From NCBI GenBank assembly GCA_041644975.1, contig JBAZQX010000007.1:1906-65905 (forward strand): DNA of 64,000 bases, given 5' to 3'. Source of the DNA: Candidatus Doudnabacteria bacterium (GTDB taxonomy: Bacteria; Patescibacteriota; JAQUNI01). Below are positions 6,124 through 47,551 of the stretch, piece by piece; position 1 is the first letter of the stretch; each line of letters starts with the position of its first letter. A program made the translations under genes and the position numbers. The notes under the pieces are model-generated. The model did no database searches, was not told the DNA's origin, and saw only the letters and a list, made by a program, of their open reading frames with translations.

Positions 6124-6273
6124 TCATTTTTGTCGCATAATATCTTTTAACAGAAGTATATGTGCGGGTTCTTGGGCGGCAAATTCTTTTAGCTCAACGA
6201 GTTGAGCTTCAATCGAAAGCACTTGTTGATCATCTTCCTCTGTAGATTTTCTTGCATAGATTAAGTATTTCAT
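6124..6273 (-). pseudogene. Truncated serine recombinase (resolvase/invertase N-terminal catalytic domain only, ~49 aa)
   Basis: MKYLIYARKSTEEDDQQVLSIEAQ matches the resolvase catalytic-serine motif (YxRxST..Q..SLxxQ). The ORF stops after ~49 aa. Confidence 0.5.
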
Positions 6274-6446
6274 ATTAATTTGATTAAAAAAATTCCTTTT
6301 CCCAGGACGAAACCGCTCATGGCTACGCCAGATCTTCAGACAACTGATTTTTTCGCCCAAAATCCCTTACAATTTAATCGCCGAGTCCGCCAATTCGGCG
6401 GATAAACTCCGCGAGGCGAACCCAAACTGCTTGCAAATTCCTTACT

Positions 6447-6466
6447 GGTGCCCGGGGCGGGACTCG
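6447..6466 (-). repeat. Partial duplicate of the tRNA-Leu 3' end (17 nt identical, followed by CCA): att-site-like direct repeat
   Basis: gtgcccggggcgggactcg here matches the tRNA-Leu 3' end at 6623-6640. In this copy the reverse complement ends ...CGAGTCCCGCCCCGGGCACCA. Confidence 0.55.
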
Positions 6467-6714: not shown

Positions 6715-6830
6715 CGTCGTTGCGAGGAGCGACCAAAAGGAGCGACGAAGCCCGCCCGCTCACAAGCTTCGCTTCAGGCGAGGCGGGCGGGCTTCGCTCG
6801 GGCTTTAAGGCCCGAGCTCGCAACGACAAA
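6715..6830. repeat. GC-rich palindromic repeat element (family B core CGCTTCAGGCGAGGCGGGCGGG inside a cgtcgttgcgagg...cctcgcaacgac inverted repeat)
   Basis: Inverted termini and a shared GC-rich core that recurs at six other sites in the window. Confidence 0.7.
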
Positions 6831-6867
6831 ATCATTTTGAGGCCAGGACGGGAATTGTCATGGCTTC

Positions 6868-6950
6868 GCCAGATCTGGCAGAGCCAGACACCCACGAATC
6901 ACGGTTTTGTCCCGCTACGCGGGATCTCGCGCAGCGAGACAGACCGTTAA
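6868..6950. repeat. Hairpin repeat (family D, TCCCGCTACGCGGGATCTCG) embedded in a partial duplicate of the tRNA-Cys anticodon/T-arm
   Basis: The minus strand reads ACGGTCTG[tctcgctgcgcgagatcccgcgtagcgggac]AAAACCGTGATTCGTGGGTG. This equals tRNA-Cys positions 27-53 with the hairpin inside the anticodon loop. Confidence 0.6.
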
Positions 6951-6957
6951 TCTTTTG

Positions 6958-7030
6958 AGGCCTAGGTGGGATTTGCACCCACGAATCACGGTTTTGCAGA
7001 CCGTTGCGTTAACTACTTCGCCACTAGGCC
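6958..7030 (-). tRNA. tRNA-Cys(GCA)
   Basis: GGCCTAG acceptor, anticodon loop CTGCAAA, T-arm GTGGGTGCAAATCCCAC. Length 73 nt. Confidence 0.85.
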
Positions 7031-7273
7031 ATATTCAATTTTCAGCAAATCCTTCTGTTGGTGAGTTTTATAGAATTTCTCCATTTCAATTGCCTCACTA
7101 CGGGTCGGAAATTCCTTATAACCTAACAACCGCCACGGACAATATGCTTTAGTTGATTTTACCTTACCGCTGTTATGTCGTTTAAATCTAACTTTCACAT
7201 TTTCCGTACTGCCTACATACAAATTATTATTTTTTAGGCTAAGTAAAAAATATACATAATACATAGAAATCAT
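7013..7273 (-). CDS. GIY-YIG nuclease family protein (small UPF0213/YhbQ-like)
   Basis: YYVYFLLSLKNNNLYVGST...RFKRHNSGKVKSTKAY...EAIEMEKFYK matches the GIY-YIG motifs. The 3' end overlaps the tRNA-Cys 5' end by 18 nt on the same strand. Confidence 0.8.
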   Translation of the reverse strand: MISMYYVYFLLSLKNNNLYVGSTENVKVRFKRHNSGKVKSTKAYCPWRLLGYKEFPTRSEAIEMEKFYKTHQQKDLLKIEYGLVAK

Positions 7274-7345
7274 GGTTTTATCCCGCTACGCGGGATCTCG
7301 TCATCAAGATCTGGCAAAGCCAGACAGAGCGAGACAGACTGTTGC
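7274..7345. repeat. Family D hairpin repeat, rearranged copy of the 6868-6950 modules
   Basis: Shares tcatgg, cccgctacgcgggatctcg, gatctggcaaagccagaca and gagcgagacagac with copy D1, in a different module order. Confidence 0.6.
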
Positions 7346-7486
7346 CTTACTACTTGCCTACCCGCCGAATAAAAAATAAAAGATGTCTCAAAGACATCTC
7401 CATTTTAGCATTTATACGGTTTTGGTCAAACGCGAAAATAGAATCATGAATCAAATTAAGAAGAATTAAGAATTCATTTCCCCTAA

Positions 7487-9820: not shown

Positions 9821-10000
9821 TGGCTCCATACTCCCCAAGCGAAGCGAGGGGCTTTGGAGCCTTAAATGCGAAATAGGATTAAAGTTAAATAATATTTTGT
9901 TTTCACGGCTTGCATTATGGCCTGCCCGCCATTGGCTTCGCCAGCAGGCGATGGCAGGCGGGCTCCATAGTCCGCTCTTAGGGCGGAACTATGGAGCCAA
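9821..10000. repeat. Two family F palindromic hairpins (GGCTCCATAGT...ACTATGGAGCC) with an intervening GCCTGCCCGCCAT...GATGGCAGGCGGGC palindrome
   Basis: Copies at 9821-9861 and 9958-10000. A third copy lies at 19315-19350. Confidence 0.6.
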
Positions 10001-10154: not shown

Positions 10155-10823
10155 TTAGATTAATTTTTCTAATCCTAATATCCAACCTTTGATTTTATTA
10201 ATTAACTCCATGTGAGACACCGAGACCCTCAATGTGCCATAAGGCAGACGATTGATAGTGCGTTTCCCTTTACTAGATGGAGTAACGCGAGAATAAGTTT
10301 TTAAAAATTGATTCTTGGGAATACGAGTTATTTTGGACCAATAATTAACCGCTCCCTCTGCGGTAACATTCGGATGAATCTGCACTGCAGCGAAAAATCT
10401 ATCTTCTCGAACATGGCAAATCTCTCGAAAAAACCTCATCATTAACTTGATCATACCGGGATCAGCATTAGAGAAATCCACGCGCCATCTTGATCGTTTA
10501 TGCCCTTCTGCCCAGTATAAAGCCACGCCTACTAAAAATAGTTCTCTTTTGGACAACTTATGAATATCTTGAGAGGCTAGATATTGTATCTTTTCCGCTC
10601 TCTCCTGCGCAAGCATGGCCCTTTTCTTATTAAATTGCGTTATATTATATGCCCATTTTCTGCGCGTTTTATGCCAAAACTTCTTTTTAATCCCAACAGG
10701 CATCTCAACATCCTTTAACCAATAAGAAAGGGTGCTCTTGGGGACTCCCAAAATTTGATTTATTTCATTATAACTCTTACCCTGTTTTCGCAACAAAGTT
10801 GCGGAATATTGCTTTGCCTTCAT
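10155..10823 (-). CDS. HTH domain-containing protein of unknown function; stop codon 4 nt from the tRNA-Gly 5' end
   Basis: N-terminal SYNEINQILGVPKSTLSYWLK helix-turn-helix. The rest is unassigned. Confidence 0.55.
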   Translation of the reverse strand: MKAKQYSATLLRKQGKSYNEINQILGVPKSTLSYWLKDVEMPVGIKKKFWHKTRRKWAYNITQFNKKRAMLAQERAEKIQYLASQDIHKLSKRELFLVGVALYWAEGHKRSRWRVDFSNADPGMIKLMMRFFREICHVREDRFFAAVQIHPNVTAEGAVNYWSKITRIPKNQFLKTYSRVTPSSKGKRTINRLPYGTLRVSVSHMELINKIKGWILGLEKLI

Positions 10824-10895
10824 TATATTGAACCAATGACAATATAACTTTATTGTATCCCATTAGTTCAATACTGTAAAAAAACATATTGACGG

Positions 10896-11231
10896 TGCCG
10901 GGGGAGAGAATCGGACTCTCGACACGATGATTTTCCATTGCTCTCTCGGATTTCTCCGAGGATTGGACTATCTCTTCTCCTCACCTAGAAATAACAAATT
11001 CTCTTTAGGTGAGGGGCTGGGCGCTTAATGCAGGATTATTATTGGGATTCACCCGCTAGTCTCTACACCTTCTCCTCTAATTAAACCCATAAAGGAGCTT
11101 GGCTCGGGATTACCATATCCCTTTGAATAAAAGGATTTAGGCTTCCCCGAATTCACCCAGTTTGCGCTTCCATATCGCTATGAAAGGGACCGAAAATTCA
11201 GTCATCTGCTCTACCACTGAGCTACCCCGGC
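10896..11231 (-). tRNA. tRNA-Phe(GAA) interrupted in the anticodon loop by a ~264-nt group I intron
   Basis: 5' exon GCCGGGGTAGCTCAGTGGTAGAGCAGATGACT; 3' exon GAAAATCATCGTGTCGAGAGTCCGATTCTCTCCCCCGGCA. Joined, they give a canonical Phe tRNA with GATGA/TCATC anticodon stem, loop CTGAAAA and A73. Confidence 0.7.
10936..11199 (-). ncRNA. Group I intron within tRNA-Phe (boundaries +/-3 nt because of GAA repeats at both junctions)
   Basis: Contains an R-like element (gtagAGACTAgcgg) and an S-like element (aagAGATAGTCCaatcc) that can pair as P7. The 5' exon ends in U and the intron ends in G. Confidence 0.6.
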
Positions 11232-11236
11232 AAGTT

Positions 11237-11365
11237 GGTAATCAGTAATTAGTAATTGGTAATTAGGGTAAACCCCGCACCGTCCGCCTTTGGCGGACTG
11301 GTGCGTGGGTAAACTCGCCCTTTGGGCGAGAAATTCCTGATTACTAGTTACTGATTACCGATTAC
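11237..11365. repeat. Family G element: inverted arms of degenerate taat-cag/tag/tgg heptamer-like repeats around a GC hairpin (ccgcaccgtccgcctttggcggactggtgcg)
   Basis: ggtaatcagtaattagtaattggtaattag ... ctgattactagttactgattaccgattactaattac. The second copy is at 60340-60442. Confidence 0.65.
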
Positions 11366-18263: not shown

Positions 18264-18424
18264 ACTCAAGTCGTCAGTGGACTCAACGAGCACCACGGGC
18301 TTTTTTTGAAAAAATTAAAAAGGACCCAAATTTAAAATAAAAAAATTATAAAAAATTTCTTTCTGGCGGAGCCAGATACGCCTTGCTAGACGATATTGCG
18401 ACCTAAGAAGCAATTTCTCCTGTT

Positions 18425-18583: not shown

Positions 18584-18931
18584 CTAAATCTTAATTTCTT
18601 CACCACAGCCTACCAATTTAGCCTCTCCATTTCTGACAAGAATTGCCTGTTCATCTGTAAGTATTTTAACCGGATACTTTGAAGTTGAAATTTTCCGCTT
18701 AAGAACTGGGGCATATTCTGGCTTAAAATGTACTGACAGCAGAAAGGGCACTAAGTTTAAAGCTCTCAAATCGGTTAATCCGAATGTATTTCTATCTGGA
18801 TGTTTCCAATACGCCATTTCTATGGTGGGGCAAGCGATACAACTTCCCGCGCTGGCGCCAATATAAATAACACCTTTTAAAATAAGCTCCTTCACAACCT
18901 TATCAAAGCCGCTCTCTCTAACGCATTTCAA
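18584..18931 (-). pseudogene. Peptidase E (S51 dipeptidase) C-terminal portion, separated from its N-terminal part by a palindromic element insertion
   Basis: In the upstream frame, DIIYVQGGNTFYLLK...VIYIGASAGSCIACPT matches PepE IVGGGNTFQLLK...GWSAGANLACPT. Confidence 0.6.
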
Positions 18932-18987
18932 TAAATAAAAAGTATTTCCGCCTTGGACATAAATAATATCCTTATCGCCAAGCAGCC

Positions 18988-19022
18988 TCCTTAAGGATGT
19001 CGTTCGCGAACGACATCCTTAA
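18988..19022. repeat. 35-bp perfect palindrome TCCTTAAGGATGTCGTTCGCGAACGACATCCTTAA (family E), copy 1, inside the peptidase E gene
   Basis: Exact palindrome; identical copy at 19195-19229. Confidence 0.85.
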
Positions 19023-19194
19023 TTCATCCTCGTTCTTGCCCTCAATATCAATTTCTTGCACATGGAATCCAACATCAGCCATTATTTGGCTGTCTTTTTT
19101 AACATAAGAAATGTCATCCTCGGCTTTTGAAGCAGTAGTAATATGGGCGAGTTTTATTTGATTAGCTGGTCTAGGGAGAAGTTTCAAAATTTCT

Positions 19195-19229
19195 TCCTTA
19201 AGGATGTCGTTCGCGAACGACATCCTTAA
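19195..19229. repeat. 35-bp perfect palindrome (family E), copy 2, read through in frame
   Basis: Identical to copy 1. Confidence 0.85.
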
Positions 19230-19381
19230 CATTTTCATACCAGCAGAGGTTAACAGTAGTGTTTTCATAATCTAATGCGAAACTATTTTTCAAAATATTA
19301 ATTGGCTTGCATTGAGGCTCCACAGGGCTATCGCCACTATGGAGCCAACAAATTTAGCTAAGTATGAAGCTGGTGCGCCGG

Positions 19382-22240: not shown

Positions 22241-22654
22241 CTATTTGAATGGATCTGGCATCCCAGATTCATCTACAAAGAGTTTGTGAACTTGTTTTTG
22301 TAGCTTCCGATGAATGTCTGCCTTAATAGTGGGGTCATTATAACCCTTAACCACTACACTCATCTTTTCTGCAACCTCATCCATGTTTTTGCAAGGTAAA
22401 ATATAGCGTACAACAGCTTCTAGAAGAGAACCGTTAATACCAATTTGTTCAATACGCACACAGAAAAAATCAAGAAACTCACTCATATCGTGTTTGAAAA
22501 TATTTCCCGTAGGTATCATTCCTCCAAAAGTAAGTTTAAGAATAGCTATCTCGGTTTGCGTAAAGGAAACGAGGATGCGCTTGCCGTCATCCAATCGGAT
22601 TTGAGAAAATGTTCCGCTCGGTTTTCTATCTGAAAAATTGATTATCTTGCTCAT
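22241..22654 (-). CDS. Hypothetical protein (137 aa), first gene of the M48 / NTase-WYL operon
   Basis: ORF on the same strand, 40 nt upstream of the M48 gene. Confidence 0.5.
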   Translation of the reverse strand: MSKIINFSDRKPSGTFSQIRLDDGKRILVSFTQTEIAILKLTFGGMIPTGNIFKHDMSEFLDFFCVRIEQIGINGSLLEAVVRYILPCKNMDEVAEKMSVVVKGYNDPTIKADIHRKLQKQVHKLFVDESGMPDPFK

Positions 22655-22810
22655 AGTTTTATTTAATTAAATCATCAACCTTAACATCTAACGCTTTGGC
22701 GATTTTGTAAAATTCCTGCTGGTCCACCCCGTTAGAAAATTTATAAAATCTTCAACGGGTTTTTATAATATCAAAAAATAAAAATTATTCTTATGCCTTT
22801 ATTTGATTTT

Positions 22811-22882
22811 TCTAACGGGGTGGACCGAGTGGGAATTGAACCCACGACCTCCTCATTGCAAATGAGGCGTTCTACCACTGAA
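22811..22882 (-). tRNA. tRNA-Ala(TGC)
   Basis: GGGCCGG acceptor with the G3:U70 identity pair, anticodon loop TTTGCAA and T-arm GTGGGTTCAATTCCCAC. Confidence 0.85.
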
Positions 22883-22916
22883 CTACCGGCCCTTGGGATT
22901 TATTCTTGATAATTTT

Positions 22917-22985
22917 ATTAAAATCATTGTCTCGCTTTGCGAGATCCCGCGTAGCGGGACAAATGCGGCACTCTAGCCAACTGAG
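22917..22985 (-). pseudogene. tRNA-Ala-like 5' half (acceptor, D-arm, anticodon 5' stem and TTTG) fused to a family D hairpin element; no 3' half
   Basis: GGGCCGTTAGCTCAGTTGGCTAGAGTGCCGCATTTG, then tcccgctacgcgggatctcgcaaagcgaga, then CAATGA. Confidence 0.4.
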
Positions 22986-23039
22986 CTAACGGCCCAAATG
23001 TAAATTACAAATGTAGATACAAAAGAAAATAACAAATTT

Positions 23040-23089
23040 TGGTGAGGGGTTGCACGCCTGTGGCGCTCTACCAGCTAAGCTACGGGCCC
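23040..23089 (-). other. Atypical 50-nt tRNA-like sequence at the position expected for tRNA-Ile in a 16S-Ile-Ala arrangement (5' acceptor and D-arm, then a non-canonical remainder ending CCCTCACCA)
   Basis: GGGCCCGTAGCTTAGCTGGTAGAGCGCC, then ACAGGCGTGCAACCCCTCACCA. Acceptor halves do not pair. Confidence 0.3.
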
Positions 23090-23477
23090 GTTTATAAAAT
23101 TAAACACTCTGTCGCGCTCTCGCACGACCTCCTTGTGTCAAGCTTTCGCTTGACCTCCTTAATTCATTTCAAAATTCTTTGCTGTTATTATAACTAAAAA
23201 AGACCCTTTAAACAAGGTTCTTTTTTTATCCGCAAAGGAGCTTTCCTTTGGCAATTAAACAGTGATAGGAAACATCTTAGAATTTAAAACACATTTTGTT
23301 TTAAAACGCCGTGTTTTAAGTTAACCACTACCGTGTGGCTTTTTTAGCGTTTGTTTGATAACAGTATCCCTTGCGAGATACCGCGACAATATTTTTCTCC
23401 CTAGAAAGGAGGTGATCCATCGACAGCTTCCGCTACCGATGCCTTGTTACGACTTCGTCCTAATTACCGATCCTACC

Positions 23478-23945
23478 GTGGATCCACCAAAAGGCGGAAC
23501 TTCGGGTATTACCGGCTCTTCTGACGTGACGGGCGATTATCTTCTTATAAACGTAAGAATTGATGTTCCCACCCAGCGAGCGGATTTCCCGCACTAGGCG
23601 AGTTCTAATGCATTTTCTTCTTCATTAGAATGGCTCCTTTCCCCATACTCGGGGTATTATGAGCCAGCTGACTTCTGACGCTGCGTTAGTTTTATTATAT
23701 AACTCGATTGAGTTAAACCGCAACATCAGATCTCCCGGGGTCAGTTTAAAAACTTTTCCTAACATCCCAAAGAAGCTTTTATATAATTTTCCCTATGCTC
23801 ACCACCCTACCATAGGTCAATTAACTTCTTTAATTTTTGGGCTGCTATTTGTTTCCGGATCCTCTGCTAACATCCTCGCGGATGTTAACTATCCTTCAAC
23901 TACGCTCTAAACGAGATTAGAGGGACGGATTTTAACCGTCTGGTT
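23478..23945 (-). other. ~430-470-nt insertion in the 16S rRNA between the GTAC(A)C 1395 block and the CGCCCGTCA 1400 block
   Basis: The conserved blocks are ~490 nt apart here versus fewer than 100 in canonical 16S. No sense-strand ORF of 60 aa or more. Confidence 0.6.
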
Positions 23946-24443
23946 TTTAAACCTGCCCGGCGCAGATTTTGTGAGTACAAGACCTGGGAACGTATTCACC
24001 GCGACATGGCTGATTCGCGGTTACTAGCGATTCCGGCTTCATGAGGTCGAGTTGCAGACCTCAATCCGAACTGGGGGTGCTTTTGATGGGATTAGCTATA
24101 GCGTTACCGCGTCGCGTCCCATTGTTACACCCATTGTAGCACGTGTGTCGCCCAGGGCATCAAAGGCCATGCTGACTTGACGTCGTCCCCACCTTCCTCC
24201 GACTATCTGCCGGCAGTCTCGCGTGACATAGTAACACGCGACAGGGGTTGCGTTCATTCCCGGACTTAACCGAACATCTCACGACATGAACTGACGACAG
24301 CCATGCAGCACCTGATCCCAAGGTTCCCCCCATAAAAAATCCAATTTTTAATTTTAAATTTTTAATTGAATTCCTTATGGGGGCACATCTCAGTTTCCTA
24401 AGATCTCCTTGAGCGTCTTGCCCTGGTAAGGTTCCTCGCTTAC

Positions 24444-24477
<34 letters not shown>

Positions 24478-24489
24478 AGGTCCCCGTCT

Positions 24490-24521
<32 letters not shown>

Positions 24522-24954
24522 TCCCAGGCGGGGCACTTAACGCGTTAGCTTACGACACTGAAGGGGTCGAGCCTCCAATGCCTAGTGCCCATCGTTTACA
24601 GCGTGGACTACTGGGATATCTAACCCCATTCGCTCCCCACGCTTTCGTCCTATGAGCGTCAGAATCGTTCTAGTAAGCTGCCTTCGCTATTGGTGTTCCT
24701 GCCGATATTAACGCATATCACTACTACACCGGCAGTTCCGCTTACTTCTCCCGACCTCTAGTCTTGAAAGTATCCAACCCTTTCCCTTGGTTAAGCCAAG
24801 GTCTTTAAGGTTAGACTTTTCAGACCGCCTAGGGACGCTTTACGCCCAATAAATCCGGATAACGCTTGGACCACTCGAATTACCGCGACTGCTGGCACGA
24901 GTTTAGTCGGTCCTTATTCGTAGGGTACCTTCAAACGTGCCTCGCTACCGCTCG

Positions 24955-25200
24955 GCACTAAATATAAATTTACAATTTTTAATTTTAAATTTTAATTCAA
25001 ATCCAAATTTTAAAATTGATTAAAAATTTCCGCCTGAAGAGCGGATCGGCTCTTCGACTCTGAAGACTCATTAGAGTTCGTTCAGAGCCTGAACAACCTA
25101 AACGACCTAGGGCTGAAAAAATTTAGAATTAAAAATTTACAGAGTGCTGAACGTAAGTGAAGCACGTCTTATTCCCCTATAAAAGCAGTTTACACTGAAG
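24955..25200 (-). other. ~240-nt AT-rich insertion in the 16S rRNA between the 357 and 515 conserved blocks (V3 region)
   Basis: Spacing of ~400 nt versus ~160 nt in canonical 16S. Confidence 0.5.
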
Positions 25201-25743
25201 AACAGCTTCTTCCTGCACGCGGCGTCGCTCCTTCACCCTTTTGGGGCATTGAGGAAGATTCTCGACTGCAGCCTCCCGTAGGAGTCAGGGCAGTGTTTCA
25301 GTCCCCGTGTGCGAGGGCATCCTCTTAGACCTCGTAACCGTCATAGCCTTGGTGAGCCTTTACCCCACCAACTAGCTGATAGTCCGCAGGCCCTTCTTGA
25401 AGCGATAAATCATTTACCATAACTAATGAATAGCTATGGCACATCGGGAATTAGTCCGCCTTTCGGCGAATTATGCCCGTCTTCAAGGTAGGTTACCAAC
25501 GTGTTACTCACCCGTTTGCCACTGTCCGCCTAACTTTTCTTGCGAAAAGTTTGGCGGACCGTTGACTTGCATGCCTTATCCACGCCGCCAGCGTTCATCC
25601 TGAGCTAGGATCAAACTCTCAAAAAAGATAATCAGCAATTAGCTCATAAAAGCTAGATTACTAATTATATAAATAGACGTTCCTATCACTATTTAATTGT
25701 CAAAGTTCAAAAATATTTTTGCTCTTAAACTAGAGCATAATTT

Positions 25744-25772
25744 ATATTAGTCTATGGATAATGGTTTGTCAA
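25744..25772 (-). promoter_or_regulatory. Candidate sigma70-type promoter for the 16S rRNA (TTGACA-17-TAATAT)
   Basis: Minus strand reads ttgacaaaccattatccatagacTAATAT. It lies ~125 nt upstream of the 16S 5' end. Confidence 0.4.
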
Positions 25773-25880
25773 GTTTTGGAACAGGGCTCATTTTAGCCCA
25801 AAATCCAAGCCTTAAATTTAGTCTTAAAAACATTGACAAAAATATTAAAATGTGCTAAGATTGAAGTATCAAAATTTGAT

Positions 25881-25936
25881 GTCATTACGAGGGATCCCCC
25901 GCCTTTTATAAAAGGTAAGGGGCTCCTCGCAATGAC
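25881..25936. repeat. Short family A palindromic element (GTCATTACGAGGG...CCTCGCAATGAC)
   Basis: Inverted termini around ccttttataaaagg. Confidence 0.6.
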
Positions 25937-25984
25937 GGAATGTTCTTTGTTTGCAATTTTTAGAATAACAAGGAGGGATTAAGG

Positions 25985-26248
25985 ATGAATTTGCCGGATT
26001 ACCGCAAACTTCAGAAATCACAGTGGAAAACCGAGAAGCCGATGGTTTGGCCTATTGTGCTTCTTATAGTTTGCTTGATGATTTTTTTCGCGATTGGGGC
26101 AGGAGTCTGGGTCCATAGCGGCGCGAAAGACGCAGGGCTCGGAAAGGATATCCTCATTTCCGAAGCCATTGGCTTTGTCCTGTGGCTTATAATCTTCCGC
26201 ATCAAAAGAGGAGCGGAGAAAGCGGAATTTTACAAAAAATTCCGTTAA
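25985..26248 (+). CDS. Hypothetical small membrane protein
   Basis: ORF of 87 aa with two hydrophobic segments. Confidence 0.3.
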   Translation: MNLPDYRKLQKSQWKTEKPMVWPIVLLIVCLMIFFAIGAGVWVHSGAKDAGLGKDILISEAIGFVLWLIIFRIKRGAEKAEFYKKFR

Positions 26249-37193: not shown

Positions 37194-37400
37194 TGAATTA
37201 CGAAATGTGCGATTAGATTCTAACCCTTTTTTTTTATCAGGGGGGAAAATTTAACCCCTCTCTAATCTCCCCTTGTCCTCCTACTTCCGCCCGGGGCGGA
37301 CTTCGGCGGGACACGGTCCTCCTTCGCCCCTCACTTGCCAAACAAGTAAGGGGCTTCGGCAGGACACGGTCAGGGGAGGTTTATCTACACTAAATATACC
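37194..37400. repeat. MITE-like element with GAATTACGAAAT terminus carrying the family C module (AACCCCTCTCTAATCTCCCCTTGTC) and direct repeats of gggcggacttcggcgggacacggtcc / gggcttcggcaggacacggtc
   Basis: Terminus at 37194-37208 and the family C motif at 37250. Confidence 0.65.
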
Positions 37401-43246: not shown

Positions 43247-43319
43247 TTTGAATTCAATTCAAAAAACGAAACCGCCGATTGATTTTTTAGGCCAACCCGC
43301 CTGCTCACAAGCCTGTGCC

Positions 43320-43418
43320 CCTGAGAAGAATCGAACTTCTATCTAGGGCTTAGGCCCTGCACCAGAGCAAAGCTCGGTACAGGGTAAAAGTCCCTTGTTC
43401 CCCGCCCGCCTGACTCGT
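43320..43418 (-). pseudogene. Degenerate tRNA-like sequence, partial duplicate of tRNA-Arg
   Basis: The minus strand has CAGGGCCTAAGCCCTAGATAGAAGTTCGATTCTTCTCAGGGGCA with a shortened anticodon loop (relative to tRNA-Arg) and an unpaired 5' acceptor. Confidence 0.3.
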
Positions 43419-43419
43419 C

Positions 43420-43494
43420 TGGTGCCCTCATCTGGAATCGGACCAGAATCTAGGGCTTAGGAGTCCCTTGTTCTATCCATTGAACTATGAGGGC
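43420..43494 (-). tRNA. tRNA-Arg(CCT), CCA encoded
   Basis: GCCCTCA/TGAGGGC acceptor, A73, anticodon loop CTCCTAA, T-arm TCTGGTCCGATTCCAGA. Confidence 0.85.
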
Positions 43495-43652
43495 GTCAGG
43501 CGAGTCGGGCGGGTATCCGCTTAAGCTACAGGGGCAAAAACAAATTAAAAATAAAAAATTTAAAATTACAAATATATACAAATTATATTCTTTAATTCAT
43601 TGCTTGTAAATTTTTCTGATGCTAGAATGAGTGGAATTACTAAAAATAGAAA

Positions 43653-45149
43653 ATGAAAATTAAGATTAAAAATAGCATCACTTTTTTAAAATATTTTTTC
43701 TTTTTTCTTTTTGTCTTCTCTATCCCCTTTCAGAAACGGCATATTTTTTCTGATTACCCTATTGCGGGAGAATTTAATGAATGGACGGCAATCAGTATTT
43801 ATGTTTCAGATATTCTTTTATTCTTAAGTTTGATCTTTTGGCTTGGCGAACTTGTTATTTCTAGAAATCATTTAAGATTACGGAATATTATAACCCCTCT
43901 TAATCTCCCCTTGTCAGGGGAGAAATATACCCCCCTGATAAGGGGGGTTAGGGGGGTTTTAAATTATTTCCGTGAGGGCATACTAAATCTTAAAAAGAAA
44001 AATAAATTATTGATTATTGGTTACTGGCTGCTGGTTACCCTGCTCGCCATTGCTTTTTTTTCCTTAATTAATGCCCAAAATTTAAACATTGCCCTCTTCC
44101 GTCTATTAAAATTAGGGGAGGTAATTCTCTTATTTATTTTTGTTGTCTTCAACTTTGGCTCAAAAAAATTACGGCTACTTTTGTATTTATTTTTACTGAC
44201 TAGCGGAATAGTTCAAGGAATGATCGCAGTAGGACAGTATTTTCACCAGCATTCTCTGGGTCTCAAAATTTTAGGCGAGAATGATCTTGCCCCTAACATA
44301 ATTGGCGTGGCAAAGATAGTCGTCAACGGCGACAAAATCATCCGTGCTTACGGCGCCTTCCCCCACCCCAACATTTTAGGCGGCTTTTCAATCGCCGCTA
44401 TTTTATTTTGTTTTTACCTATGGACCAAAATACCAAAGGTAAAATGGGACAAATCTCTAAAAATCATCCTCCTTATCATTCTTTCTCTCTTTACCATCAC
44501 CATCACCATCACCTTTTCCCGCACGGCTTGGCTAGGACTCATCATCGCTTTATTGGGCTTGCTCATCATTAACCTCCACAAAATCAAAAACTACGTTCCC
44601 GTTTTCGGCGTGATTATTATCACCGCTTTGATTCTATTTTATTTCCTCCAGCCCCAAATTTTAACTCGCCAAACGATTAGTGATTCTTCAGGGGATTTCG
44701 CTCTCACAAACCGCGCGTTTTTAAACCAAATTGCCTTGCTCATAATTGCCAAACACCCTCTTTTAGGGGTCGGAATAGGTAATTTCGTGCCTAGCATCCC
44801 TGACTTTACCCCGTTAGATAGTAAACATCTAACGGGGTTTACTAAAATGAACCTTCCTGCTTGGCGCTATCAGCCAAGCCACAATCTCTATTTGGCTATG
44901 GCTTCAGAGACAGGTCTCCCTAGTTTATTGATCTTTCTAACCTTTTTATACTTAACCATTGCTCACGCTCTCGGGCAGATTCGGAACGACCCTGAAATCG
45001 GAATTCTGTTTTGGATTTTAATTGCTTACCTCTTTATTAGCTGCTTGGACCACTACTTTTATGATCTCCAACAAGGAATCCTATTATTTTGGCTTATCTT
45101 GGGGATAATTTGGGTAATTATTTTACAAAAATCTAAAAATGTTGCATAA
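43653..45149 (+). CDS. O-antigen ligase / O-antigen polymerase family membrane protein carrying an in-frame family C repeat insertion
   Basis: Multi-TM protein with the SHNLYLAMASETGLPSLLIF ligase motif. Codons for ITPLNLPLSGEKYTPLIRGVRGV are encoded by the repeat at 43890-43960. Confidence 0.75.
   Translation: MKIKIKNSITFLKYFFFFLFVFSIPFQKRHIFSDYPIAGEFNEWTAISIYVSDILLFLSLIFWLGELVISRNHLRLRNIITPLNLPLSGEKYTPLIRGVRGVLNYFREGILNLKKKNKLLIIGYWLLVTLLAIAFFSLINAQNLNIALFRLLKLGEVILLFIFVVFNFGSKKLRLLLYLFLLTSGIVQGMIAVGQYFHQHSLGLKILGENDLAPNIIGVAKIVVNGDKIIRAYGAFPHPNILGGFSIAAILFCFYLWTKIPKVKWDKSLKIILLIILSLFTITITITFSRTAWLGLIIALLGLLIINLHKIKNYVPVFGVIIITALILFYFLQPQILTRQTISDSSGDFALTNRAFLNQIALLIIAKHPLLGVGIGNFVPSIPDFTPLDSKHLTGFTKMNLPAWRYQPSHNLYLAMASETGLPSLLIFLTFLYLTIAHALGQIRNDPEIGILFWILIAYLFISCLDHYFYDLQQGILLFWLILGIIWVIILQKSKNVA
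43890..43960. repeat. Family C palindromic element (AACCCCTCTTAATCTCCCCTTGTCAGGGGAG...CCCCCCTGATAAGGGGGGTTAGGGGGG) inside the ligase CDS
   Basis: Near-identical motif at 37250, 45528 and 47398. Confidence 0.75.
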
Positions 45150-45305: not shown

Positions 45306-45600
45306 AAAAATGTTCCACGTGGAACATTTTTAATTTCCTTAAATTACGAAACTCCCTCCCCTTGCCTCCCGCGGAGTAATCTAACTCCCTCCCTGACAAG
45401 GGAGGGGAAGGCCTGCCCGCCATCGCTTCGCCTGCCCGCAACGCCTTGCGGCTAGCATGGCGGGCGTGGCTTCAGGCGAGGCGGGCGGGGGAGGGTTAAA
45501 AGGATTTATTCTCTCTCTTACCTGAATTAAACCCCTCTCTAATCTCCCCTTGTCAGGGGAGAAGTTTACCCTCCTCTAGGTAAGGGGGAATATATTGGAA
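45306..45600. repeat. Left flanking composite repeat of the TrmB cassette: 16-bp palindrome TGTTCCACGTGGAACA, then a MITE-like element with ATTACGAAACTCCC terminus, CTCCCTCCCTGACAAGGGAGGG and family C modules, and a nested family B insertion (45415-45495)
   Basis: Direct-repeat partner at 47285-47551. The nested GC-rich segment is absent from the partner. Confidence 0.7.
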
Positions 45601-47284: not shown

Positions 47285-47551
47285 TTATATTACGAAACTC
47301 ACTCCCCCCGCCTCCCGCGGGGAAATCTAACTCCCTCCCTGACAAGGGAGGGAAGGGGAGGGTTAAAAGAATTTATTCTTTCTCTTACTTGAATTAAACC
47401 CCTCTCTAATCTCCCCTTGTCAGGGGAGAGGTTTTCCCCTCCCTTGGCGAAGTAATAATCCCAATAATACTTATAAAAAGAGTAGAGACAGGTTTTAAAC
47501 CTGTCTCTACTCTTTAAAAACGATTTAAATGTTCCACGTGGAACATTTTTT
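47285..47551. repeat. Right flanking composite repeat of the TrmB cassette (same modules as 45306-45600, lacking the nested family B insert; the 16-bp palindrome TGTTCCACGTGGAACA sits at the distal end)
   Basis: tattacgaaactcactcc...ctaactccctccctgacaagggaggg...aaacccctctctaatctccccttgtcaggggag...aaatgttccacgtggaacatttttt. Confidence 0.7.

Follow-up and report, generated by a model that had tools for sequence, protein, structure and literature searches.

Free-standing homing endonucleases of the GIY-YIG type move with gene segments, as exemplified by SegB in the tRNA cluster of phage T4 and by an Allomyces mitochondrial open reading frame (ORF) with a duplicated atp6 end. Short, GC-rich double-hairpin elements and GC clusters are dispersed in the AT-rich mitochondrial DNA of fungi, and REP/REPIN sequences with their RAYT transposases, as well as hairpin-ended elements of the IS200/IS605 type, are targeted to motifs. 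SegB of phage T4 is mentioned in PMC13096335. Partial tRNA genes made by integrated genetic elements have been documented (van der Gulik et al. 2023, PMC9897764), as have GIY-YIG ORFs in non-intron insertions of rRNA genes from the Candidate Phyla Radiation (CPR; PMC11270868), in a paper whose main text leaves tRNA unmentioned. Here we analyse two tRNA-like fragments, F1 and F2, that lie on the minus strand between a 16S rRNA gene and an intact tRNA-Ala(TGC) gene in a 64,000-nucleotide (nt) stretch of Candidatus Doudnabacteria DNA (contig JBAZQX010000007.1 of assembly GCA_041644975.1, positions 1,906 to 65,905; hereafter, the window). The window belongs to the 77.9-kb ENA metagenome contig ERZ27249422 k141_699790, and one of the proteins it encodes has been deposited under Candidatus Doudnabacteria.

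F1 and F2 are probably non-functional, truncated copies of tRNA-Ala(TGC) that were orphaned when mobile elements invaded that gene. Each is colinear with part of the intact gene and ends at an abrupt breakpoint, as befits a pseudogene fragment. A preliminary description had reported the two pieces in this order, followed by the intact gene, and this arrangement, on the minus strand downstream of the true 16S end, is confirmed. The features of the locus are as follows.

23089-23040, minus strand: F1 as a whole, GGGCCCGTAGCTTAGCTGGTAGAGCGCCACAGGCGTGCAACCCCTCACCA
23059-23089, minus strand: tRNA part of F1, nt 1-31 of a tRNA-Ala-like gene, with acceptor strand GGGCCCG, D arm and CCACA
23050-23058, minus strand: F1 junction GGCGTGCAA (GGCG plus TGCAA)
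22996-23049, minus strand: F1 tail and spacer, with CCCCTCACC at 23049-23041 and an AT-rich spacer after it
22995-22924, minus strand: F2 as a whole, GGGCCGTTAGCTCAGTTGGCTAGAGTGCCGCATTTG plus two hairpins, then CAATGA
22960-22995, minus strand: tRNA part of F2, tRNA-Ala nt 1-35, the last base being G35 of the anticodon TGC
22930-22959, minus strand: 30-nt double-hairpin element in F2; the element reads on the plus strand
22893-22929, minus strand: CAATGA (nt 36-41, the remaining anticodon loop and stem) and a 31-nt AT-rich spacer
22819-22892, minus strand: intact tRNA-Ala(TGC), 73.4 bits, with G3:U70 present and CCA not fully encoded

Two tRNA-Ala-like fragments downstream of the 16S rRNA gene

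Compared with the tRNAs of CPR bacteria, the 31-nt tRNA part of F1 scores best against tRNA-Ala (23/31), followed by tRNA-Val (21) and tRNA-Ile (19), and it matches the intact tRNA-Ala of the window at 25 of 31 positions up to nt 31. CPR tRNA-Ile genes have GCGCGTCAC; F1 has GCGCCACA. The 5' strand of the F1 anticodon stem, CCACA, is that of the tRNA-Ala gene in the closest relative (L022), and TGCAA in the F1 junction corresponds to anticodon-loop positions 34-38 of tRNA-Ala(TGC). In F2, 29 of the 36 positions that align with the intact gene as far as G35 are the same, and past the insert the tRNA sequence continues with CAATGA (nt 36-41). The locus contains three tRNA-Ala alleles, distinguished by GGGCCCG/CCACA in F1, GGGCCGT/CCGCA in F2 and GGGCCGG/CCTCA in the intact gene.

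Neither fragment is recognized as a tRNA gene. ARAGORN and Rfam, even when relaxed (E<=10, 22500-26000), returned the intact tRNA-Ala only, so that the search with relaxed covariance models envisaged in the preliminary description yields no tRNA call for F1 or F2. The 5' part of F1 alone gives a 15.6-bit, 3'-truncated match to positions 1-29 of the Rfam model RF00005 (cut-off 29 bits), which bears out its reported tRNA-like acceptor and D-arm start; F2 alone has no match to the Rfam tRNA model. Folded singly, neither forms a cloverleaf. The folding of F1 is not better than that of shuffled sequences (z +0.92); F2 does better than its shuffles (z -2.66) because of its two hairpins. The acceptor halves of F1 cannot pair, and a 3' acceptor strand complementary to GGGCCCG or GGGCCGT was not found in 22600-23450. 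The earlier remark that the pieces lack a tRNA fold was thus correct.

F1 had been assigned to the tRNA-Ile position of a 16S/tRNA-Ile/tRNA-Ala/23S operon, and this assignment fails on comparison with related genomes. We collected 119 genome loci with the same 16S 3' end, among which L022 has 94% identity over 860 nt of 16S and the others approximately 80%. The gene order in L022 is 16S, trailer, a strong terminator, three protein genes and tRNA-Ala(TGC), with no tRNA-Ile after 16S and neither of the two fragments, which are therefore not conserved. In a BLAST search of the spacer against the 119 related 16S-downstream regions, L022 was the sole match, and over the first 164 nt only. The sequence past 16S was long enough for comparison in 102 Patescibacteria loci: in 81 the first 1 kb after the 16S 3' end contains no tRNA, in 21 the first tRNA is tRNA-Ile(GAT), and an Ile-Ala pair occurs in none. 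From the order in L022 and this survey it follows that nothing is missing where F1 sits and, judged by gene order, the 16S/Ile/Ala/23S frame is inapplicable to the lineage of the window. Neither a 23S rRNA gene nor a tRNA-Ile was found in the window and the contig-end stretches (about 75 kb of the 77.9-kb contig), in agreement with the earlier statement that no 23S rRNA follows.

A 30-nt double-hairpin element interrupts F2

The insert in F2 reads on the plus strand as TCTCGC-TTT-GCGAGA followed by TCCCGC-GTA-GCGGGA and is located at TTG^CAA, that is, between G35 and C36. It belongs to a family with the pattern TCTCGC-nnn-GCGAGA plus TCCCGC-nnn-GCGGGA, preceded by YTG; the match at 22930-22959 (plus strand) is exact, with TTG before and CA after. 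Further copies in the window are found at 6910-6939 and at 7281-7334, the latter with another element nested in its first loop, and perfect hairpins of the form TC-N4-loop-N4-GA number 18 in the window versus 0.32 in dinucleotide shuffles. A metagenome scan for GCGAGATCCCGCNNNGCGGGA gave matches in at least 119 contigs. Among the matches listed, about half are chance occurrences in GC-rich coding DNA, and the others are full elements in AT-rich, CPR-like sequence; at least 50 non-redundant full copies are present among them, with TG before in 41 (28 TTG, 9 CTG) and CA after in 20.

The same tRNA site can hold the element in either orientation, copies are nested in one another's loops, and many sites lie outside tRNA sequences. 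Truncated tRNA copies adjoining an intact gene repeatedly have it in their anticodon, T or D loop, often together with a GIY-YIG ORF, and at the loci examined every tRNA piece that bears it is a truncated copy. An intact gene with the same anticodon lies within 120 nt at 10 of 54 element sites, each of these 10 being a tRNA context. When the element was excised in silico at the 54 sites, F2 included, a tRNA was restored at none. The element is not an intron in a working tRNA gene. Its dispersed copies are target-specific insertions, placed after YTG and in many cases at TG^CA within a hairpin loop.

GIY-YIG cassettes at tRNA genes and the tail of F1

A second tRNA locus of the window, which contains both the hairpin element and a GIY-YIG ORF, has the following components (aa, amino acids).

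6838-7366, minus strand: tRNA-Cys module
7366-7266, minus strand: 5' partial copy of tRNA-Cys; nested double hairpin (7334-7281) in its anticodon loop
7273-7013, minus strand: GIY-YIG ORF, 86 aa, PF01541 with E 1.7e-18; last codons and stop inside the intact tRNA-Cys
7030-6957, minus strand: intact tRNA-Cys, T loop TGCAAAT, which contains the TG^CA target
6950-6838, minus strand: 3' partial copy of tRNA-Cys, with elements in the anticodon loop (6939-6910) and T loop (6888-6858)

The window and loci L156, L178, L192, L196, L201, L219 and L241 share one order: a 5' partial tRNA-Cys with the element at G34/C35, then the GIY-YIG ORF, the intact tRNA-Cys and a 3' partial copy that is likewise interrupted by the element at G34/C35. 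The usual last member of the module is tRNA-Leu(TAA). The 5' partial copy of L219 has the acceptor strand GGCCTGG, which pairs with CCAGGCC of the 3' partial copy and not with the intact gene. The two partial copies thus derive from a single older gene whose halves are now separated by the nuclease gene and a different tRNA-Cys allele.

Association with tRNA genes is common for small ORFs of this kind. At the fetched loci, 15 of 24 lie within 50 nt of a tRNA gene on the same strand or overlap its 5' end, the genes concerned being those for Cys, Pro, Trp, Glu and Ser. One further ORF overlaps the 3' end of tRNA-Asn, three abut truncated copies and two are inside 16S genes. GIY-YIG ORFs were observed inside the 16S rRNA genes of other Patescibacteria at L062 5859-6206 and L064 ~1700-2080; the latter is situated between inverted repeat arms CCCAGCCCTTTTC and GAAAAGGGCTGGG, a design like that of the tRNA cassettes.

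The boundaries of the cassettes are defined best at tRNA-Ala and tRNA-Val genes. In L243 and L248 (tRNA-Ala GGC) and L246 (tRNA-Val CAC), an orphan nt 1-10 is followed by CCCCTCACCTAG, the ORF, CTAGGTGAG and a full tRNA, and the left inverted repeat is seen at tRNA-Ala or tRNA-Val genes in four unrelated Patescibacteria contigs. In L157 the GIY-YIG ORF is bracketed by CCCCTCACCCAGAAATTT and AAATTTCTGGGTGA, with GGGCCCTTAG on its 5' side. Past the ORF are four tandem 5' partial copies of tRNA-Ala, each cut by a hairpin at CATTTG^, and the array ends with an intact tRNA-Ala(TGC) and then a 3' partial copy that starts from C36. Public data contain over 430 clusters of proteins of the L157 type, and the ORFs of L243, L246 and L248 encode homologues of it. 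The ORF of L137 is reduced to just 8 codons, and the layout is that of F2, spacer and tRNA-Ala. The corresponding stretch of the window, 22893-22929, contains an ATG that opens a 14-codon frame whose stop is the TAG in the D arm of the intact tRNA, which weakly suggests the same layout as in L137 with its 8-codon remnant.

The tail of F1 resembles the left side of such a cassette. CCCCTCACC is invariant in all six aligned sequences, among them the F1 tail and the boundaries of GIY-YIG cassettes, and the tail as a whole can be aligned colinearly with the repeat and the beginning of the ORF in L157 (score 16 versus 9.7 +/- 1.75 in shuffles, with 13 of 2000 shuffles reaching 16). The F1 spacer keeps TCTACATTT, as in the first codons ATGTTCTACATTT of the L157 ORF. 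It also keeps AATTTGTTATTT, which is found again in a hairpin of the group I intron in the tRNA-Phe gene of the window (CCCCTCACC...GGTGAGG, 11016-10979), itself similar to a GIY-YIG cassette repeat without an ORF. F1 thus fits the left side of a cassette, in which a tRNA 5' piece is followed by (G)CCCCTCACC and, about 10-15 nt further on, by the ORF start. On account of these boundary matches, the best reading of what had been described as the 3' CCA end of F1 is that a cassette, since lost, had its left edge there, CCCCTCACC being the conserved left inverted repeat, and from the alignment the F1 tail can be read as a collapsed GIY-YIG cassette. The right repeat, CTRGGTGAG, is absent 5' of F2 and 5' of the intact tRNA-Ala, and we infer that it was deleted at this locus.

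Two other origins of the F1 tail were considered. It could be a collapsed tRNA-Ala 3' end (CCCC-TC-ACCA versus CCCCATCGGTCCACCA in L022), which is possible and needs two internal deletions; we rank this below the cassette repeat because it leaves the identical 9-mer and the colinear cassette spacer unexplained. Retro-copying of mature, CCA-ended tRNAs was rejected, as no reverse transcriptase was found among the window ORFs scanned or the contig-end Pfam marks and the CCA of F1 is otherwise explained.

A possible route to the array

The loci themselves show that tRNA copies are truncated, what the hairpin element is and where it prefers to insert, that GIY-YIG ORFs are associated with tRNA genes, that cassette boundaries are conserved and that some gene halves match, and a pathway that would connect these findings can be outlined. 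A small GIY-YIG homing-endonuclease cassette would cut the tRNA gene, and repair of the break would copy the cassette in. Either a complete tRNA copy or a replacement 5' segment would be copied in as part of the cassette or along with it, which would keep the gene alive and leave the resident 5' part upstream as an orphan. In such orphans the TG^CA exposed in the anticodon loop would then collect insertions of the hairpin element, presumably because the orphans are no longer under selection. The nuclease ORF would later have been lost by deletion at the tRNA-Ala locus, and repeated cycles could have produced the array of F1, F2 and intact gene. Cutting of tRNA genes by the nuclease, and repair copying with a replacement segment, are among the steps that we infer from genomic arrangement.

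Several observations weigh against this account. No GIY-YIG ORF was found at 22700-23200, the sole one in the window being that at 7013-7273, and the tRNA-Ala locus can consequently only be a cassette relic. With the ORF lost, the link to the cassettes rests on a 9-nt exact match, 13 nt in a hairpin of the window and one alignment (p ~0.007), and the bare 9-mer CCCCTCACC occurs at chance frequency (11 in 3.2 Mb of strand in the fetched DNA), so that its position is the only telling feature. A homing role would be attributed to these proteins from the GIY-YIG catalytic domain (PF01541) and the genomic pattern. The AAGGAGGTC hairpin units 5' of F1 and the inverted repeat after tRNA-Ala fall outside the account. 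The loci obtained from the element scan are biased towards sites that bear the element. Finally, no Y1 (HUH) transposase, integrase or reverse transcriptase was found by Pfam among the approximately 55 window ORFs scanned, nor at the contig ends, for which precomputed Pfam marks only were consulted.

A broader and more tentative proposal, to which we give somewhat less than even credence, is that Patescibacteria carry an undescribed mobile system of two components, GIY-YIG cassettes and 30-nt double hairpins, that targets and overwrites tRNA genes and leaves dead arrays behind. The first component may be a GIY-YIG protein of ~84 aa with a conserved inverted repeat that inserts at nt 10/11 of tRNA-Ala and tRNA-Val; tRNA-Cys may be a further target, as may, in weaker contexts, the tRNAs for Ser, Glu, Pro and Trp. 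It may supply a replacement segment or a whole tRNA copy by which the gene is kept alive. The second component may consist of the 30-nt mini-elements, inserted into YTG^ (often TG^CA) of DNA hairpin loops. In the literature on GIY-YIG proteins and tRNA in CPR/Patescibacteria no description of this arrangement was found, and a search on double-hairpin elements retrieved the term in mitochondrial papers only and in none on bacteria. The combination of a tRNA-targeting cassette with a hairpin element therefore appears to be undescribed.

Alternative explanations

That the fragments are attachment-site (att) scars, left by the integrase-driven gain and loss of phages or integrative elements at tRNA-Ala, is unlikely. 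Such scars would fall within the documented class of partial tRNA genes from integrated elements (PMC9897764), and the window does contain a tRNA-Leu 3' fragment with CCA (6466-6448) beside a weakly resolvase-like ORF, as well as an AbiEii toxin gene 2 kb downstream of tRNA-Ala. However, integrases typically leave 3' parts on the downstream side, and F1 and F2 are 5' parts on the upstream side; the spacers measure just 31-54 nt; and the breakpoints are marked by a hairpin element and by the repeat of GIY-YIG cassettes rather than by direct repeats like those of att sites. An integrase was found neither among the window ORFs scanned nor in the contig-end Pfam marks. Scans of viral contigs returned neither the hairpin element nor the F1 junction, and so an origin from a phage attP is unsupported.

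Local duplication and decay, through unequal crossing-over or replication slippage, with the hairpin and the CCCCTCACC block as late and incidental additions, is likewise improbable. Three near-identical tandem units in L157 look like amplification by unequal recombination, and the three alleles of the locus differ at approximately 20% of positions, so that the events would be old. Against this, the truncation points fall exactly at element or cassette boundaries, both here and in independent contigs, and the three copies are distinct alleles, F1 having the CCACA stem of the relative's gene. The nesting of one tRNA within another at tRNA-Arg, described below, would also be left unexplained. 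The preferred reading, invasion of tRNA-Ala by mobile elements, retains part of what the preliminary description had proposed: truncated copies do abut repeated or mobile sequences, in keeping with rearrangement by repeat activity, but the pieces are of the tRNA-Ala type and not a tRNA-Ile with a tRNA-Ala half.

It is very unlikely that the orphans are kept as expressed leader or small RNAs whose transcripts have a role, for example as a stable 5' leader or a terminator for the tRNA-Ala unit, or as a decoy. The second hairpin of F2 with CAATGATTTT does score like an intrinsic terminator, and every tRNA-Cys module has its nuclease ORF preceded by the 5' part with the element, a possible leader for that ORF. 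The arrangement is, however, not conserved in L022, evidence of covariation is absent, no ORF is left to lead at the tRNA-Ala locus, and no promoter-like site was seen on the minus strand in 22600-23450.

We consider it highly improbable that F1 and F2 are functional, unconventional tRNAs, F1 as a minimal tRNA with CCA and F2 as a half or intron-bearing gene that is processed or trans-spliced. Both open with a good acceptor 5' strand and D arm, F1 gives the truncated 15.6-bit Rfam match and F2 folds with z -2.66, and the insert in F2 occupies the anticodon loop, a site of tRNA introns. Nevertheless, neither is called at E<=10, F1 folds no better than chance (z +0.92) with acceptor halves that are unpairable, and its CCA belongs to the cassette repeat. 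F2 lacks a T arm and a 3' acceptor strand, with no 3' half nearby; excision restores a tRNA at none of the 54 sites, and the element is found either way round and in many places outside tRNA sequences. An intact tRNA-Ala(TGC) lies 31-37 nt downstream and the fragments are absent from L022, which leaves little room for the split or minimal tRNAs once suggested.

A chimeric MEGAHIT join through tRNA-like repeats is scarcely credible: the contig does come from a short-read metagenome assembly (k141), and the Logan assembly of another sample breaks at 22876, in tRNA-Ala, and near the 16S start and leaves the region unspanned, but a join at k=141 requires more shared sequence than a tRNA gives and the copies share at most 16 nt exactly, the same architecture recurs in many contigs from other projects and assemblers, and L022 also has 16S followed by tRNA-Ala(TGC).

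Other features of the window

The surroundings of the array contain the following features.

23403-25626, minus strand: 16S rRNA gene, Rfam match 23919-25626, true 3' end GGATCACCTCCTTTCT at ~23403
23536-23970, minus strand: 435-nt insertion in 16S at the GTACACAC/CGCCCGTCA (conserved 1391-type) site, without an ORF
about 24940-25160, minus strand: second 16S insertion, 222 nt, in the 5' domain
23196-23404, minus strand: 16S trailer and terminator-like hairpin
23111-23160, minus strand: two tandem 26-nt units, each AAGGAGGTC plus a hairpin with a GNRA tetraloop
22721-22826, minus strand: long inverted repeat (28 nt), 86% complementary, z -6.8 versus shuffles

The Rfam match to 16S ends 516 nt short of the true 3' end because the gene carries insertions, and the 435-nt insertion has a weak match to group II D1-D4 (E 0.048). 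The first 164 nt of the trailer (23405-23242) have 82% identity to L022, and past the trailer a terminator-like hairpin with a T run occupies 23226-23196, such that the 16S gene looks like a stand-alone transcription unit. The hairpins of the two AAGGAGGTC units are TCAAGC-GAAA-GCTTGA and TCGTGC-GAGA-GCGCGA (z -5.9 for the region versus shuffles), and AGGAGGTCGTG is common to the second unit and nt 40-50 of the intact tRNA-Ala; the units may be relics of a tRNA-Ala 3' part bearing hairpin elements. In the 22721-22826 repeat the 5' arm includes the last 8 nt of tRNA-Ala and 11 nt of flank (GGTCCACCCCGTTAGAAAA / TTTTCTAACGGGGTGGACC), and the repeat may act as a terminator or represent a miniature element with one end in the tRNA.

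Related rearrangements affect other tRNA genes of the window, tRNA-Leu being a weaker case than tRNA-Cys and tRNA-Arg.

43314-43535, minus strand: nested tRNA-Arg(CCT), intact gene at 43494-43420, with GC-rich inverted repeats at its flanks
10894-11231, minus strand: tRNA-Phe(GAA) with a group I intron in the anticodon loop (Rfam 92.9 bits), missed by ARAGORN

The tRNA-Arg(CCT) gene sits in the D loop of an older tRNA-Arg gene, with no ORF involved. The acceptor strands of the older gene, GCCCCTG and CAGGGGC, pair with each other, and its anticodon loop contains a 34-nt hairpin insert between nt 33 and 34 (43388-43355). The 3' end of tRNA-Leu(TAA) is repeated as a 19-nt exact copy with CCA at 6466-6448, 156 nt 3' of the intact gene, and looks like an old integration scar. 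In the same stretch (6124-6466, minus strand), a 78-aa ORF beside this fragment has a weak match to a resolvase N-terminal domain (E 0.0012). Between tRNA-Phe and tRNA-Gly lies a 222-aa ORF (10155-10823, minus strand) with weak helix-turn-helix matches, which may be a free-standing gene of the homing-endonuclease-like or transposase-like kind within the tRNA cluster. On the same contig outside the window (L250 13881-14345), a further group I intron (81.6 bits) precedes a 3' tRNA exon-like sequence, CATAACCGG...GGACCCACCA, for which the 5' exon is not obvious, and tRNA-Ala(GGC) comes next.

Repeats are also found away from tRNA genes. GC-rich hairpins within longer AT-rich or GC-rich palindromes (TCCGCC...GGCGGA, TCGCCC...GGGCGA and similar) occupy many intergenic regions and constitute a genome-wide hairpin repeat family.

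6720-6835, 9940-10000, 11283-11329, 37286, 49033 and others: nested GC-rich hairpins
43890-43925, 45530-45565, 47395-47430, also 37250-37285: copies of the repeat AACCCCTCTCTAATC-TCCCCTTGTCAGGGGA

The latter repeat is present in 3-4 intergenic copies near O-antigen-ligase-like and TrmB-like genes. A Peptidase_S51 gene at 18584-19268 (minus strand) is represented by two adjacent ORFs of 98 and 115 aa and is probably frameshifted or interrupted; a TCTGGC...GCCAGA hairpin is located just downstream of it (18362-18376).

Implications and comparison with known systems

For annotation, F1 and F2 should be entered as tRNA pseudogene fragments, and neither as a missing tRNA-Ile nor as exotic tRNAs, and the expectation of a 16S/Ile/Ala/23S operon does not fit this clade. 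The fragments themselves are ordinary; the notable part is the cassette and hairpin system behind them, of which the locus would be a fossil record, selfish DNA having repeatedly replaced an essential tRNA gene there. In view of the more than 430 GIY-YIG clusters and the well over a hundred metagenome contigs with the double hairpin, tRNA genes may be a major arena for mobile elements in reduced genomes. If true, this would offer a route for the horizontal replacement of tRNA alleles. A 30-nt element that is apparently loop-specific, and a minimal nuclease with a defined genomic target, are of possible interest as tools.

As in the partial tRNA genes of PMC9897764, truncated copies lie beside an intact gene of the same type, are probably by-products of tRNA-targeting mobile DNA and would accompany an invader that restores the gene. 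In contrast to that class, the 5' parts are upstream here, no integrase was found among the window ORFs or contig-end Pfam marks, the breakpoints are at hairpins or GIY-YIG repeats, and the scars measure tens of bases rather than kilobases. The insertions of PMC11270868 share with the present loci the phylum-level group, the kind of small GIY-YIG ORF and the invasion of structured RNA genes, whereas the tRNA cassettes described here are distinguished by duplicated tRNA segments and conserved boundary repeats.

The short hairpin element has its own counterparts. Like mitochondrial double hairpins, it consists of two adjacent hairpins, is found nested and in RNA genes, and sometimes lies near mobile endonuclease genes; unlike them, it resides in a bacterial chromosome, belongs to another sequence family and has a clear YTG^ preference, and there is no evidence of common descent. 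With REP and IS200-type elements it shares insertion by a short motif, the lack of terminal inverted repeats or target duplication, hairpin ends and miniature copies. It differs from these in its length of 30 nt only and in its association with GIY-YIG ORFs, and neither the scan of window ORFs nor the contig-end Pfam marks revealed a Y1 (HUH) transposase.

With respect to the proposed mechanism, the cassettes are comparable to SegB and the Allomyces ORF. In both cases a nuclease gene lies beside or inside an essential gene, co-transferred sequence keeps that gene, and the displaced part is left as a fragment. The cassettes of Patescibacteria, as read from the genes alone, differ in encoding a protein of ~84 aa with a catalytic domain and no recognisable DNA-binding domain, in their inverted-repeat brackets and in residing in cellular bacteria.

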